Assembly (NCBI RefSeq): GCF_024223415.1
Contig: NZ_CP100510.1
DNA length: 1,565 nucleotides
Reading direction: 5' to 3' (one strand)
Origin: Escherichia coli
Lineage (GTDB): Bacteria; Pseudomonadota; Gammaproteobacteria; Enterobacterales; Enterobacteriaceae
Position numbers and translations under genes: made by a program. Every line of letters starts with the position of its first letter. Position 1 is the first letter of the stretch. The notes beneath the pieces are model-generated. The model worked only from the letters and a program-made list of their open reading frames with translations. It was not told the DNA's origin and ran no database searches. Below are positions 1 through 1,565 of the stretch, one piece after another.

Positions 1-585
1 ATGTGCAAATGTAATACCGTCACCCGCGACGATATTCCGTTTGCCATCTGGTCAGGGCTTCGCCCCGACACCCCGCATCAGTGCGTACGTGCTCAATGTG
101 GTTTCCGGTTCTCTTCCGCTTCCTCGCCCACTCGCTCACTAACGTTCGGTCGCTGGGGCTGCGGCGAGCGGTGCCACCTCTCGCATGTTGTCGGTGATTC
201 CGCTGTTGTTCTTTCGGGGATAAGTCGTCAGATAGCCCTTCAAACGCGCTCAGAAGCTCTCAGACGCACGAAACGGGGTTTAAATGCCCGTCAGGGCATG
301 GAAGGCGCGAAAAACGCTTACAGAGCGTTTCAGGAGGTCAGGCGCGCCGATACCCCTAGCCAGGGGCTTTCAGGTCGCCAGGAACCGCGCCAGCCCCCTG
401 CAAAGCCCATTTGCACGGTACAGGCAGCCACTCGGTTGGTAGGTGGTCGTAGACCGTCGGTGTTACAGCGATGGGGGTCTGGGGTTCTCCCCAGACGGTT
501 TCCGGTTGCGCTCAAGGCGCTGCCGGAACCGTGGCGGCTCGATCGTTCTGGAGATCGGGGAGCAAAAACACGCAAGGGATTTTGA
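1..585 (+). CDS. Longest ORF (194 codons), of doubtful coding status; hypothetical protein only if real
   Basis: An ATG at position 1 opens a frame that runs to TGA at 583-585. Against coding: the product is Arg/Gly/Ser/Pro-rich and low in complexity. It uses many rare codons (aga, agg, ata, cta, cgg). It also runs straight across blocks that are non-coding in ColE1-family plasmids (111-172) and across the stem-loop cluster at 477-559. It is listed only because gene callers may report it. Confidence 0.15.
   Translation: MCKCNTVTRDDIPFAIWSGLRPDTPHQCVRAQCGFRFSSASSPTRSLTFGRWGCGERCHLSHVVGDSAVVLSGISRQIALQTRSEALRRTKRGLNARQGMEGAKNAYRAFQEVRRADTPSQGLSGRQEPRQPPAKPICTVQAATRLVGGRRPSVLQRWGSGVLPRRFPVALKALPEPWRLDRSGDRGAKTRKGF
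50..74. repeat. Perfect 25-bp inverted copy of the oriT-proximal hairpin element (partner at 1386-1410)
   Basis: ggtcagggcttcgccccgacacccc (50-74) is the exact reverse complement of ggggtgtcggggcgaagccctgacc (1386-1410). Identity stops on both sides. Confidence 0.9.
111..172. other. ColE1-type conserved block downstream of oriT (region of the primosome-assembly / single-strand initiation hairpins in ColE1-family plasmids)
   Basis: ctcttccgcttcctcgc (111-127) and ggctgcggcgagcggt (157-172) are identical to the pBR322/pUC strings ctcttccgcttcctcgc...ggctgcggcgagcggt. The interior is similar but diverged. A long-range stem pairs 116-119 plus 124-128 with 163-171, leaving a 4-nt bulge. Assignment as a pas/ssi site relies on homology of position in ColE1 and is not demonstrated here. 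Confidence 0.4.
477..559. other. Three adjacent stem-loops (RNAI/RNAII-like fold) in the part of the ColE1-like backbone where antisense copy-control RNAs would map
   Basis: SL-A pairs 477-484 with 489-496 (8 bp, loop ttct). SL-B pairs 497-511 with 517-530 (one bulge, one mismatch, one T-G, loop tcaag). SL-C pairs 538-544 with 553-559 (7 bp including one T-G, 8-nt loop). The two T-G pairs would be G-U only in plus-sense RNA. I could not identify a clear promoter or T-run terminator on either strand. Confidence 0.25.
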
Positions 586-622
586 GGCGGCAAAAGAGCA
601 ATGCAGGATAGACAACCCGATG

Positions 623-640
623 TCAAATGTTAACATTTGA
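623..640. repeat. 18-bp perfect palindrome tcaaatgttaacatttga
   Basis: Every position from 623 to 640 pairs with its mirror position, and the centre is GTTAAC. It lies in the intergenic gap between the ColE1-like region and the 3' end of rep. On the minus strand, TTGACA (complement of 621-626) overlaps its edge. Confidence 0.9.
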
Positions 641-651
641 ATCAGATTGTC

Positions 652-668
652 CAAAAACGGGGTTTTTG
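652..668 (-). terminator. Weak hairpin downstream of the rep stop codon (possible rep terminator)
   Basis: caaaaac-ggg-gtttttg (652-658 paired with 662-668) lies ~20 nt past the rep stop in the minus direction. The stem is almost all A-T and no separate T-run follows, so it is a poor canonical terminator. Confidence 0.25.
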
Positions 669-686
669 CCTGTGCCTGCCGCTGGC

Positions 687-1166
687 TCAATTTGAAAACA
701 TGGCCATGATTCGGCGCTGAATATCACCGTCTTTGTTGACCAGTGTTTTAGTGACAAACGCCGCGTAGTTTTTAGATGTGTTGTATCCCTTCCAGACTTC
801 ATGTGGATCGAGTGCATACGCACAAACCTTACCAGCAACAGGAATTCTGACTAACGCGTTTTTTGATTCTAAGTAGTTGAGCCAGCGCTTAATTGTGCTT
901 CGGCTAACACCCAATTTATCTGCTAAAAACTGCTGATCGGCAACAACAGCACCGCATGAGGGATCTATGTGCTCAGCTAAAAACGAGTAAAGCGGTATTG
1001 CTACAACTCCCTGCTTGTCCTTCGACAGTTCTCGGATCCTTTCCCAGCCCTTCTGATAAACCTGGGTGAATGGGCCGTTATTTTTCGGATCTGATTCCGA
1101 TTCTTTGTTTAATTTTTCCAGTTCTTTTAGACGCTTTTTTCGCTGCTCTTCAGTCCCGATATACAT
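687..1166 (-). CDS. repA: Small plasmid replication-initiator-like DNA-binding protein (159 aa, helix-turn-helix, RepA-type)
   Basis: Complete ORF with ATG at 1166-1164 and TGA at 689-687. GGAG (complement of 1174-1177) lies 7 nt upstream of the ATG. Residues ~80-101 (FLADKLGVSRSTIKRWLNYLES, nt ~864-929) fit a classic HTH pattern (G-V-S-x-x-T-I-x-R-W). The N-terminus is Lys/Glu-rich (EEQRKKRLKELEKLNKESE). It is the only ORF with ordinary amino-acid composition, and it sits directly downstream of iteron-like repeats in a tiny plasmid-like sequence. The Rep function and the repA symbol are inferred from context and from recollection of pKL1-type plasmids, not from a search. Confidence 0.8.
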   Translation of the reverse strand: MYIGTEEQRKKRLKELEKLNKESESDPKNNGPFTQVYQKGWERIRELSKDKQGVVAIPLYSFLAEHIDPSCGAVVADQQFLADKLGVSRSTIKRWLNYLESKNALVRIPVAGKVCAYALDPHEVWKGYNTSKNYAAFVTKTLVNKDGDIQRRIMAMFSN

Positions 1167-1173
1167 GGTAAAT

Positions 1174-1177
1174 CTCC
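1174..1177 (-). promoter_or_regulatory. Shine-Dalgarno (GGAG) of the rep CDS
   Basis: The minus strand reads ccgtGGAGatttaccATG, with 7-nt spacing to the start codon. Confidence 0.7.
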
Positions 1178-1185
1178 ACGGTCTA

Positions 1186-1237
1186 ATGATGGCTCAAATA
1201 TAAGCCATCATAGCTCAAACGTAAACCATGATAGGTC
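1186..1237. repeat. Three phased ATSATRGSTC boxes (1186, 1207, 1228; 21-bp period), with boxes 1 and 2 also forming a 9-bp inverted repeat; candidate Rep operator
   Basis: The boxes are atgatggctc (1186-1195), atcatagctc (1207-1216) and atgataggtc (1228-1237), starting exactly 21 bp apart. atgatggct (1186-1194) is the perfect reverse complement of agccatcat (1203-1211). The boxes bracket the predicted -35 and -10 of rep. Confidence 0.6.
1197..1225 (-). promoter_or_regulatory. Candidate sigma70 promoter for rep (-35 TTTACG, 17-nt spacer, -10 TATATT)
   Basis: The minus strand reads TTTACG (complement of 1220-1225), then 17 nt, then TATATT (complement of 1197-1202). The -10 lies about 30 nt upstream of the rep ATG. 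It sits in the 8-nt spacer of the 9-bp inverted repeat at 1186-1194/1203-1211. Confidence 0.5.
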
Positions 1238-1241
1238 GACC

Positions 1242-1292
1242 TAGCTCACACATGCGTGAGCTAACCTTAGACCACACATGCGTGAGCTAACC
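1242..1292. repeat. Iteron-like repeats: two perfect 20-bp direct repeats, the first extended into a 22-bp near-palindrome
   Basis: cacacatgcgtgagctaacc occurs at 1247-1266 and again at 1273-1292 (20/20 identical, 26-bp period). tagctcac (1242-1249) pairs perfectly with gtgagcta (1256-1263) around acatgc. The half-site TGAGCTA/TAGCTCA recurs at 1211-1217, 1242-1248, 1257-1263 and 1283-1289, with a related tagctaa at 1304-1310. Confidence 0.75.
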
Positions 1293-1293
1293 C

Positions 1294-1350
1294 ATAATGC
1301 AAGTAGCTAAAAAATCAATAACTTACAAAATCGCCCTTAAATATCTTTTC
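1294..1350. other. A+T-rich tract flanking the iterons, with an IHF-consensus core; candidate unwinding region of the vegetative origin
   Basis: G+C is about one quarter by hand count, versus roughly 60% in 61-180. AATCAATAACTTA at 1313-1325 matches WATCAANNNNTTR at every specified position and is preceded by an A6 run. No convincing DnaA box was found. Confidence 0.35.
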
Positions 1351-1355
1351 TGCTG

Positions 1356-1385
1356 AAAGTGTTGCGCAAAGCGGAACACTTTTTT
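1356..1385 (+). terminator. Rho-independent terminator-like hairpin, plus-strand orientation
   Basis: Stem 1359-1367 pairs with 1371-1379 (gtgttgcgc / gcggaacac, one G-G mismatch at 1364/1374), with an AAA loop. Six T residues follow immediately (1380-1385). On the minus strand only three T would follow, so the orientation is plus. Confidence 0.6.
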
Positions 1386-1450
1386 GGGGTGTCGGGGCGA
1401 AGCCCTGACCCAGTCACGTAGCGATAGCGGAGTGTATACTGGCTTACTCC
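1386..1450. other. ColE1/pMB1-type origin of transfer (bom/oriT) with conserved nic motif
   Basis: gggtgtcggggcgaagccctgacccagtcacgtagcgatagcggagtgtatactggcttac is nearly identical to the pBR322/p15A bom segment as I remember it (gggtgtcggggcgcagccatgacccagtcacgtagcgatagcggagtgtatactggctta). cagtcacgtagcgatagcggagtgtatactggctta is unchanged. By homology to the CTGG|CTTA nic I recall, the nick would fall between 1442 and 1443. An imperfect hairpin is present at gtcggggc-gaa-gccctgac (1391-1409). Confidence 0.7.
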
Positions 1451-1565
1451 TCTGCAAGCCTTACCAGCTGTGATTTTTGCCAGATTTCACGCTCTCAACG
1501 TTCAACAGCTCCATCATGGTTTTGCCGTCCGTTCACCGCTAAAACGCCTCAGAAATCGGGACAGG

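Follow-up and report, generated by a model that had tools for sequence, protein, structure and literature searches.

The small plasmid pKL1 (NC_002145, 1549 bp) from E. coli KL4 was reportedly described by Burian et al. in 1997, 1999, and 2003. Plasmids of this kind are cryptic, with repA as the sole encoded gene (PMC3486847; PMC3526173), and the oriV of pKL1 is reported to lie upstream of rep and to contain Rep sites, inverted repeats, and an IHF box (PMC3832669). In ColE1, the ssiA site has been described downstream of the RNA/DNA switch (PMC3167613). Small plasmids devoid of a relaxase and equipped with several oriTs have also been documented; among them are pBuzz, pSe-Kan, and pKPN2 (PMC9282650).

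The stretch of DNA analyzed here, which we call the window, comprises 1565 bp and is a complete circular plasmid, to which many E. coli records show 100% identity; the identical 1565-bp circular plasmids of E. coli carry the Col(MG828) typing. The window plasmid is a known and very common cryptic type of the pKL1 family ("Col(MG828)"), its kind being well sampled within that family, and the Col(MG828) group includes pMG828-1, pG-EA11/pG-TY2482 (O104:H4), pJJ1886_1, and pSF301-1. With pKL1 the window shares the size class and the layout—a lone repA, with repeats and an IHF box 5' of the gene—as well as a common backbone, 87.7% identical over window positions 1307-506. The family types of 1552 and 1558 bp have only 45-60% identity to the window over 1001-1400; the 5' half of repA and the operator/oriV are strongly diverged between family variants, which divergence on a common backbone suggests different specificity alleles.

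We consider it probable that the window is a pKL1-family RepA replicon combined with portable cis-acting modules, and that two of these, the pas block and an adjoining module designated X, most likely constitute an accessory of replication or priming. The ~870 bp outside the replicon would then be made up of such modules: bom, an IncI1-type oriT, pas plus X, and the hairpin/terminator block at 593-698. The features are the following, with coordinates in the window:

687-1166, minus strand: repA, the sole conserved gene, an ORF of 159 aa for a predicted winged-HTH initiator of the pKL1/RepL-like kind
1186-1292, no strand assigned: repeat cluster upstream of repA, with repeat families D1, D2, and D5 and inverted repeats I2 and I20
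1313-1325, plus strand: IHF consensus AATCAATAACTTA, within the A+T-rich part of the oriV region
1356-1386, plus strand: hairpin AAAGTGTTGCGC / GCGGAACACTTT (inverted repeat I10) that resembles a terminator, with a T-run after it, between oriV and bom
1381-1452, plus strand: ColE1-type bom/oriT, an orphan oriT in a plasmid without mob genes
1538-1565, minus strand: nick-region half of an IncI1-type oriT, reading ...TGCACATCCTGTCCCG across the record start
1-75, minus strand: inverted-repeat half of the IncI1-type oriT, including GGTCAGGGCTTCGCCCCGACACCCC, in which the bom repeat recurs inverted
73-224, minus strand: block of the ColE1-type pas (ssiA / n'-site) region, homologous to ColE1 1405-1256
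225-600, no strand assigned: X, a G+C-rich conserved noncoding module joined to the pas block in all cases
593-698, plus strand: hairpin/terminator block 3' of repA, with 92-95% identity to IncX4 plasmids

The repA product, labeled as an HTH protein or as RepA in the identical and related records, is 78% identical in amino acids to the RepA of pKL1 over its full length (E 3e-94). The protein scored 28.2 bits against Pfam HTH_36 (cut-off 25) and 16.8 bits against Pfam RepL (PF05732; gathering cut-off 20.3), which latter cut-off the Reps of other X-bearing plasmids exceed, and RepA homologs at 51% identity bear the RepL annotation. The RepL-family small plasmids of the Enterobacterales (L005, L008, L017, L139, and L142) resemble the window in having a small winged-helix Rep with an operator region upstream, followed by pas and X in the window's orientation, although their Reps are 21-51% identical to the window RepA or else unalignable with it.

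Upstream of repA, the window exhibits the pKL1-type oriV layout of repeats, inverted repeats, and an IHF box. Direct repeats of ~21 bp occupy 1186-1241, and a pair of 25-bp repeats, each with a palindrome, takes up 1242-1292; these we presume to be the RepA binding sites, the operator, and oriV; a promoter-like site on the minus strand (1225-1197) lies within the same cluster, and the IHF consensus is matched once in the window, versus 0.06 matches expected by chance. By analogy with the homologous pKL1, replication of the window plasmid would be RepA-dependent, the initiator acting through the repeats, the IHF site, and the A+T-rich stretch just upstream of its gene (687-1380), whereas the hairpin at 1356-1386 may serve as a terminator. 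A preliminary description of the window had set a self-contained Rep/iteron module of low G+C apart from a G+C-rich remainder, which division is supported (59.7% G+C in 1-600 vs. 43.6% in 601-1380), and the counts there made by hand were right, the values being 65.8% for 61-180, 40% for 841-900, and 30% for 1081-1140.

Of the two orphan oriTs, the ColE1-type bom is 95.5% identical over 67 nt (1381-1446) to ColE1 (NC_001371) 1528-1462 (E 2e-19) and 100% identical over 64 nt to one ColE1-like plasmid; in the plasmid L004 the likeness runs out to 1452 (88% over 67 nt), and matches to 1381-1449 number in the hundreds among mobilizable ColE1-like plasmids. The other oriT, composed of 1538-1565 together with 1-75, is 90% identical over 104 nt to the sequence directly upstream of nikA in an IncI plasmid, which segment ends 14 nt before that gene, and the part at 1-75 has 89-95% identity to IncI and related conjugative plasmids. 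The likeness to the R64-type IncI1 oriT takes in both the nick-region sequence ...CATCCTGTCCCG and the GC-rich inverted repeat; the putative nick position within 1538-1565 was placed by the R64 and IncP-type YATCCTG|Y sites. This second oriT is oriented oppositely to bom; the inverted repeat I1 (50-83 / 1377-1410) is 88% complementary; and the interval between bom and pas, 56 nt in ColE1, measures 191 nt in the window with the IncI1-type oriT. Unlike IncI1, the window plasmid possesses neither nikA nor nikB and would rely on a co-resident I-complex plasmid.

Judging from these sequences, bom and the IncI1-type oriT would allow the mobilization of a plasmid without genes for it by relaxases furnished in trans. 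That "relaxase in trans" strategy is the one of pBuzz, pSe-Kan, and pKPN2, which plasmids likewise lack a mobilization gene and bear a pair of oriTs that differ in type or are inverted; but pBuzz replicates as a rolling circle and the other two are ColE1-type, whereas the window has a RepL-like/pKL1 initiator with iterons. Because of their two orphan oriTs, these 1.5-kb "gene-less" plasmids should be treated as potentially mobilizable, even though some of their records are typed as non-mobilizable.

The block at 73-224 matches the ColE1 segment located 70-210 nt downstream of the ColE1 ori. Over 73-185/213 the identity to ColE1 and ColE1-like plasmids is 71-82% (E 1e-11 to 1e-24), with 71% to ColE1 1405-1295 and 79-82% to the plasmid L004. 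The pas core TTCCGCTTCCTCGC...CTGCGGCGAGCGG at 113-171 has its ColE1 counterpart ~113-171 nt beyond the RNA/DNA switch, and hardly varies among the six plasmid types compared—ColE1, pKL1, IncX4, I-complex-like, IncF, and Arsenophonus RepL. The GGGGATAAG at 216-224 is half of the ColE1 dnaA-box hairpin, and its spacing to CTGCGGCGAGCGGT is 57 nt, as in ColE1; DnaA boxes, for their part, were not above chance. From its position in ColE1 and from the coordinates of the factor-Y site of pBR322, we regard 73-224 as a putative primosome-assembly region (pas) whose active strand would, by analogy, be the minus. If exposed as a single strand, the core would recruit PriA, DnaB, and primase, either for lagging-strand synthesis or for the synthesis of the complementary strand after transfer. 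Scanning contigs with a 15-base degenerate pattern of this core was too unspecific, with true homologs at 2 of the 120 loci.

The preliminary description had gone further, proposing a shortened and colinear ColE1-type backbone on the basis of six strings known from pBR322. All six are present, and the coordinates given for 111-127 and 157-172, 423-432, 459-468, and 574-584 are right, whereas cgcatcag occupies 74-81, shifted by one base from the proposed 75-82. The likeness to ColE1/pMB1 (pBR322), with relative order and orientation kept, is real for bom/oriT (95%) and for the post-ori ssiA / n'-pas segment (71-82%) at 73-224, which includes cgcatcag and the 111-172 core, but fails for the rest of the landmarks: the last three patches are at chance level (Smith-Waterman z ~0; two-way profile searches empty). 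Only the 9-mer GCAGCCACT from the patch strings is in common with ColE1; GGTGTTACAG has a ColE1 match only with one mismatch, and AAGGGATTTTG is absent from ColE1 altogether. The 9-mers in common with ColE1 amounted to 2, against 1.1 expected.

Similarly, 225-600 had been viewed as a strongly diverged ColE1 ori/RNAII, for which we found no pairwise or profile homology and no RNAI. When Smith-Waterman significance was obtained from dinucleotide shuffles, 214-686 compared with the ColE1 ori/RNAII gave z values of -0.6 and 0.7, while the control 73-213 gave 13-20. Sensitive blastn produced no ColE1 match in 225-686, and nhmmer returned nothing either for the X profile against ColE1-type plasmids or for an RNAII profile against the window. 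The search for RNAI (Rfam RF00106) was negative in the window even at E<=10, and in pKL1, with positive controls of 73.8 bits in ColE1 and 80.8 bits in the plasmid L009. DNA matches to the ColE1 rop and mob regions were absent from the window, the ColE1/pMB1 features not found there being RNAI, RNAII, the ori (RNA/DNA switch), rop, the mob genes, and cer, the last three of which ColE1-type replicons often but not necessarily have.

One might still suppose a fossil ColE1 replicon, in which a Rep module was captured, RNAII and the ori decayed in place, and 225-600 was left as a shortened remnant, but such a history seems to us very improbable. It would explain why bom and the pas block keep the ColE1 order and orientation and why X stands where ColE1 has the ori and RNAII; a real ColE1/pKL1 chimera (L009) exists, so that recombination of this sort occurs; and with very permissive gap costs 214-686 reached a z of 3.0 against the ColE1 ori region in the forward direction and 1.5 as the reverse complement, common 8-mers being slightly enriched (11 vs. 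4.3 expected, p about 0.02). Those 8-mers, however, are scattered and not colinear, the standard local alignment and the two-way profile searches yielded the negative outcomes given above, AAGGGATTTTG is missing from ColE1, and no RNAI-like RNA is present. Nor is X decaying: the module is 94-99% conserved in the family, with near-invariant blocks in distant plasmids, and pas plus X adjoins unrelated Rep genes in plasmids without bom. Among the loci examined, moreover, no ColE1-family intermediate linked RNAII to X.

Homology was limited to bom and the block containing 111-172, which result the preliminary description had itself named as contrary to its own reading. The lack of any trace of a ColE1 replication origin argues against the window being a ColE1 replicon, whether dual or fossil; the coexistence of two initiation mechanisms, likewise envisaged there, is without sequence support; and the capture of a Rep module by a ColE1-like plasmid is unneeded because the parts assort independently. 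Replicon replacement does not hold, and the ColE1 content consists of an oriT and a primosome-site block only.

Module X, for its part, is a 380-bp conserved noncoding sequence, present in 822 plasmid records and in ~10% of the complete E. coli genomes (570 of 5426) and fused throughout to the ColE1-like pas core. It contains conserved sub-blocks at ~293-322, 338-412, and 443-472 and three consecutive hairpins at 473-560. Its divergence is patchy (P<0.0005), which pattern could stem from gene conversion instead of selection; and its right edge differs between hosts, at 331, 353, 473, 550, or 600+, which variability would likewise be compatible with small plasmids that had integrated and survive as decaying relics. 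A protein-coding X was rejected, in that the 194-aa ORF (1-585) and a 98-aa ORF matched nothing in Pfam or NCBIfam and the long ORF is interrupted in relatives of 96-100% identity. A single conserved RNA fold was discarded as well, on an RNAalifold covariation term of +1.9; given this absence of net covariation and the modest folding z-scores of X (-1.7 to -2.4), a structured ssi role for X is no more than hypothetical. Rfam families gave chance matches only in the window by E-value, and none in L004. No real phage match occurred at E<=1, the phage collection—which presumably includes G4 and phiX174—returning pKL1-like and vector-like records only.

Elsewhere, in plasmids without bom, pas plus X has a RepL-like, Pir, or I-complex-like Rep gene as its neighbor. 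The order rep <- operator - pas - X is common to the window, L005, L008, L017, and the IncX4 plasmids, and in the plasmid L011 a second copy of pas, inverted, flanks the replicon. Four RepA-homologous plasmids (L140, L141, L143, and L144) are without pas and X, bom being present in L140 and L141; the existence of such plasmids indicates that pas plus X is accessory and not essential. The Col(MG828) replicon-typing label follows pas plus X and not rep, so that this typing reports a common noncoding block instead of an initiator gene and consequently groups together plasmids whose Reps differ and overlooks others that share a Rep.

These distributions bear on whether pas plus X might itself be an origin. 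If the pair formed a dual replicon—that is, a functional Rep-independent or Rep-assisted origin belonging to a non-ColE1 sequence family—leading-strand synthesis would begin within X and proceed X -> pas -> rep, primed by a minus-strand transcript entering X, for example from the sigma70-like site at 633-605, which points into X, or by read-through from repA. The constant orientation of X, pas, operator, and rep in the window, L005, L008, L017, and IncX4, where most genes point the way the predicted fork would move, agrees with that scheme, as does the typing label; and in L011 the block follows an I-complex-like repA at ~390 nt downstream, the place of the oriV and the priming sites in such replicons, as in R1/R100. 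We nevertheless hold this arrangement to be unlikely: every small X-bearing plasmid has a Rep gene of its own, with no X-only plasmid found; complete RepA-homologous plasmids do without pas and X; a consensus scan detected no promoter within X, and the 633-605 site is missing from L005, L009, and L011; and no antisense regulator or covarying RNA fold was found. Rather unlikely, too, is the notion that pas plus X (~77-600) is a portable and previously undescribed replication module used, in a fixed orientation, by initiators as different as RepL-like, Pir, and I-complex-like RepA proteins and detected by the Col(MG828) label. The module would then join a primosome site resembling that of ColE1 to an unrelated "start" region under sequence constraint and might serve as a leading-strand or primer-RNA origin bearing no sequence relation to RNAII.

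Alternatively, X could be a third orphan site for transfer or maintenance, either an oriT mimic (for instance, of IncX4) or a stability locus like the par of pSC101. In favor of this, two orphan oriTs are present in the window already, there are precedents for small plasmids that combine several oriTs with the lack of a relaxase (pBuzz and others, PMC9282650), and conjugative plasmids of the IncX4, IncF, and MOBC/MPF_T kinds contain parts of X. We think this quite unlikely, however, in that the block adjoins the rep gene in IncX4 and L011, and not relaxase or accessory genes, and in that X is fused to the pas core in all cases. Furthermore, no recognizable nick-region motif was identified, and there is no Xer core site, the best Xer/cer-like candidate having 8/22 mismatches and lying inside repA, while the ColE1 cer control was found exactly. 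Our best guess remains that pas plus X is an accessory of replication and priming, in which X would add further strand-specific signals to those of the primosome site.

Finally, the hairpin block at 593-698 has its IncX4 counterpart after the pir operon. Within this block, the arms 611-617 / 645-651 enclose an 18-bp palindrome, TCAAATGTTAACATTTGA (623-640), and an A5/T5 hairpin at 652-668 and a GC hairpin at 674-686 follow; in the relatives, the inner palindrome is swapped for an unrelated one, whereas the arms are invariant.

The whole window is a circular plasmid of 1565 bases, to which a dozen circular plasmids of 1565 bp from E. coli and one Klebsiella were 100% identical by megablast in PLSDB, about 200 records of that database covering at least 80% of its length. 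The matching records are typed Col(MG828) and bear one annotated gene, on the minus strand at 687–1166, entered as an HTH protein or "RepA". The kind of plasmid is already known: pKL1 (NC_002145, 1549 bp), the prototype of the group, is 88% identical to window 1307–506 and 76% to 509–1211, its RepA being 78% identical to that of the window; and PMC3526173 and PMC3486847 portray pKL1 and the 1.5-kb plasmid of O104:H4 as cryptic or "selfish", with repA as the sole encoded gene. pKL1-like or X-bearing plasmids were also found deposited as "phage" genomes (OR844798.1, OR844749.1, OX638291.1, in the phage collection) and in assemblies of unrelated bacteria (the Rhizobium wenxiniae contig L035; NZ_CP031857.1, Actinobacillus, 2310 bp), which entries probably stem from carry-over or contamination, not from a genuine range of hosts.

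The oriV of pKL1, as characterised in PMC3832669, sits upstream of rep, where sites bound by Rep and inverted repeats accompany an IHF box. The window exhibits the same set of features, along with a promoter-like site oriented toward repA:

1186–1292: repeats of 21 bp and 25 bp that contain palindromes, from the repeat search
1313–1325: single match to the IHF consensus (0.06 expected by chance)

By homology with pKL1, RepA bound to the upstream repeats, together with IHF, would open an A+T-rich stretch and so start replication. Against Pfam, the window RepA scored above the cut-off for HTH_36 and under it for RepL, the latter being the annotation carried by RepA homologues at 51% identity. 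Within the close family the backbone (1401–1565 plus 1–600) is 90–100% identical, versus 45–60% over 1001–1400, which takes in the 5' half of repA together with the operator region; this divergence looks, at the sequence level, like specificity-allele exchange on a common backbone—as would be anticipated were determinants of incompatibility or specificity to be exchanged or to diversify. Among the 1552-, 1558-, and 1565-bp variants (loci L002 and L035 versus the window), the repA 3' half is likewise 90–100% identical.

The preliminary description had proposed a dual or fossil ColE1 replicon on the strength of six ColE1/pMB1 strings. All six do occur in the window—cgcatcag at 74–81, instead of 75–82—and the accompanying G+C estimates were accurate, but only three of the six represent true homology, the three downstream patches being at chance level. 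In a comparison with ColE1 itself (NC_001371) and with a pair of ColE1-like plasmids, sensitive blastn detected ColE1 homology at two places only:

1381–1446/1452: bom, 95.5% identical to ColE1 and 100% to one ColE1-like plasmid
73–185/213: second ColE1-homologous segment, 71–82% identical

Since GGGGATAAG (216–224) lies at a distance of 57 nt from CTGCGGCGAGCGGT, exactly as in ColE1, the second block extends over 73–224. Its ColE1 counterpart is located some 70–210 nt past the RNA/DNA switch, where PMC3167613 and PMC8246471 describe the ssiA, or n'-primosome, assembly site. The pas core is almost invariant in ColE1, pKL1, IncX4, I-complex-like, IncF, and Arsenophonus plasmids. The factor-Y site of pBR322 lies, we assume, on the CTCTTCCGC...GCGAGCGG core. 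On the basis of this homology and of the ssiA position in ColE1, the single-stranded pas core would load a PriA primosome, whose priming would serve either the lagging strand or, after transfer, synthesis of the complementary strand.

Among the patches, the only 9-mer common to ColE1 and the window was GCAGCCACT; ColE1 carries GGTGCTACAG in place of GGTGTTACAG, and AAGGGATTTTG is absent from the whole of ColE1, the pBR322 occurrence presumably being the Tn3-derived end outside the pMB1 replicon. Overall, the window and ColE1 have two 9-mers in common versus 1.1 expected, and the common 8-mers are scattered without colinearity. Smith–Waterman alignment of 214–686 with the ColE1 ori/RNAII gave z-scores of −0.6 and 0.7, as against 13–20 for the control segment 73–213; with very cheap gaps only, a forward z of 3.0 was reached (reverse complement, 1.5), which value we treated as carrying no information. 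An nhmmer profile of X (225–600) matched nothing in four ColE1-type plasmids, nor, at E ≤ 100, did a profile of three RNAII regions match either pKL1 or the window, and an Rfam scan of the window with E ≤ 10 turned up no RNAI, the controls scoring 74 bits (ColE1) and 81 bits (a ColE1-type hybrid). The alignment to ColE1-type plasmids, which check the preliminary description had itself named, thus came out as the result it had listed as contrary to its proposal: the window holds a Rep/iteron replicon plus ColE1-derived modules, as had been recognised, but no ColE1 origin, either living or fossil. That the plasmid should retain a decayed ColE1 origin is in view of these scores highly improbable. 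As a case of replicon replacement the plasmid is of low interest, and what interest remains attaches to the pas+X module, very widespread and uncharacterised, and to the true meaning of the Col(MG828) label.

ColE1-type and pKL1-type plasmids do recombine, as evidenced by L009 (NZ_CP063704.1, 4888 bp, Salmonella), a true hybrid over positions 96–2018 that nevertheless differs from the window plasmid, its RNAI, Rop, and own pas belonging to a ColE1-type replicon:

96–445: X
712–1143: shortened pKL1-type rep, abutting rop, without upstream oriV
1143–1334: Rop
1332–1425: the hybrid's own pas
1917–2018: RNAI

A further plasmid with Rop, Mob, bom, and pas, L004 (NZ_CP090531.1, 3373 bp), contains an ori region (118–870) without detectable similarity to ColE1 RNAII or X and without an Rfam RNAI at E ≤ 1; the region is possibly a third kind of origin module carried on the shared backbone.

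Module X, non-coding and of 60% G+C, was found in 822 PLSDB records, not limited to pKL1 plasmids, and in 570 of 5426 complete E. coli genomes, where 721 of the 725 places lay on plasmids. The module is invariably joined to the pas block, with a shared left edge at about window 77–83, and has as neighbours initiators unrelated to one another:

RepL-family genes (plasmid loci L005, L008, L017, L139, L142)
Pir, in IncX4 (window 77–331 matched)
an I-complex-like RepA (match to window 83–473, some 390 nt downstream of repA)

The I-complex-like locus has a second pas copy, inverted, upstream of the leader; in IncX4 and in every small plasmid compared, the order is rep (reading outward), operator/iterons, pas, X. 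Identity to the most distant copies was 80–100% in 113–172, 293–322, 338–412, and 443–472 versus 26–40% in 203–292, with a block variance 3–4 times that of shuffles (P<0.0005), which patchiness argues for sequence constraint. A hairpin at 284–300 is retained with a different stem in loci L011 and L014, and the folding z-scores of X are modest; the module gave no net signal of single-fold covariation, no Rfam family, no promoter, no Xer core, no excess of DnaA boxes, and no similarity to real phages in the phage collection. Because its linkage and orientation are fixed and its conservation is patchy, X might tentatively be regarded as an accessory signal linked to pas priming.

Four complete circular plasmids whose repA is homologous to that of the window (66–71% nucleotide identity) are devoid of both pas and X:

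L140: Salmonella, 1240 bp
L141: Enterobacter, 1334 bp
L143: Aeromonas
L144: Serratia

Judging from these sequences, pas+X is probably not part of the essential origin; and since L140 and L141 combine repA and a ColE1-type bom without pas+X, the bom, pas+X, and Rep modules assort independently. The main alternative to an accessory role, namely that replication truly starts in X, as a novel sort of start region, and that the replicon is in that sense "dual", appears unlikely beside these four plasmids. The Col(MG828) label tracks the non-coding pas+X block and not the rep gene (83–550; L005, L140, L141, and L142 compared): L005, with only 83–550 in common with the window and a different RepL, is nonetheless so typed, whereas L140 and L141, with a homologous RepA and no pas+X, are untyped.

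The stretch 1538–1565 plus 1–75, between bom and the pas block, is recognisable by sequence as an IncI1-type oriT, being 90% identical over 104 nt to an IncI plasmid sequence ending 14 nt before nikA; on the minus strand, the record start is crossed by ...TGCACATCCTGTCCCG, which we take to be the R64/IncP-type nick region. There an open reading frame begins:

1–585, plus strand: 194-aa Arg-rich ORF, a "hypothetical protein" in some records

This ORF had no protein-family match and, because it is broken in relatives 96–100% identical over the same stretch, is most likely spurious. Its ATG falls within the nick region at exactly base 1, and our guess is that the records begin there because an assembler's start-fixing step chose this ORF. 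The GC-rich repeat of the IncI1-type oriT copies the bom repeat in inverted orientation, from which results:

50–83 / 1377–1410: long-range inverted repeat of 34 nt, 88% complementary, with the GC-rich repeats of the two different oriTs as its arms

The plasmid, with no mobilisation genes, therefore carries two orphan oriTs in opposite orientation, the same strategy that PMC9282650 records for pBuzz and further small plasmids; these sites would permit mobilisation in trans by ColE1-type Mob proteins and I-complex relaxosomes. The IncI1-type oriT also explains the many conjugative plasmids among the 4013 window-matching records, whose matches, among those listed, fall at window 1–75. The inverted repeat could drive inversion, deletion, or assembly errors, and short records of 1197 bp (window 182–1378) and 1123 bp (linear, without 189–673) may be products of that repeat or artefacts.

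Finally, a hairpin block lies 3' of repA:

593–698: hairpin block, with arms at 611–617 / 645–651, a palindrome at 623–640, and hairpins at 652–668 and 674–686

Its invariant arms, GACAAyC and GATTGTC, enclose an insert of about 27 nt that is a perfect 18-bp palindrome in the window, one RepL plasmid, and IncX4, and that in the 1552-bp relatives is swapped for an unrelated but still palindromic sequence. In IncX4 plasmids the block (92–95% identity) comes after the pir operon, its GC hairpin there being followed by a T-run; 593–698 may be an exchangeable hairpin/terminator or a site bound by a protein.
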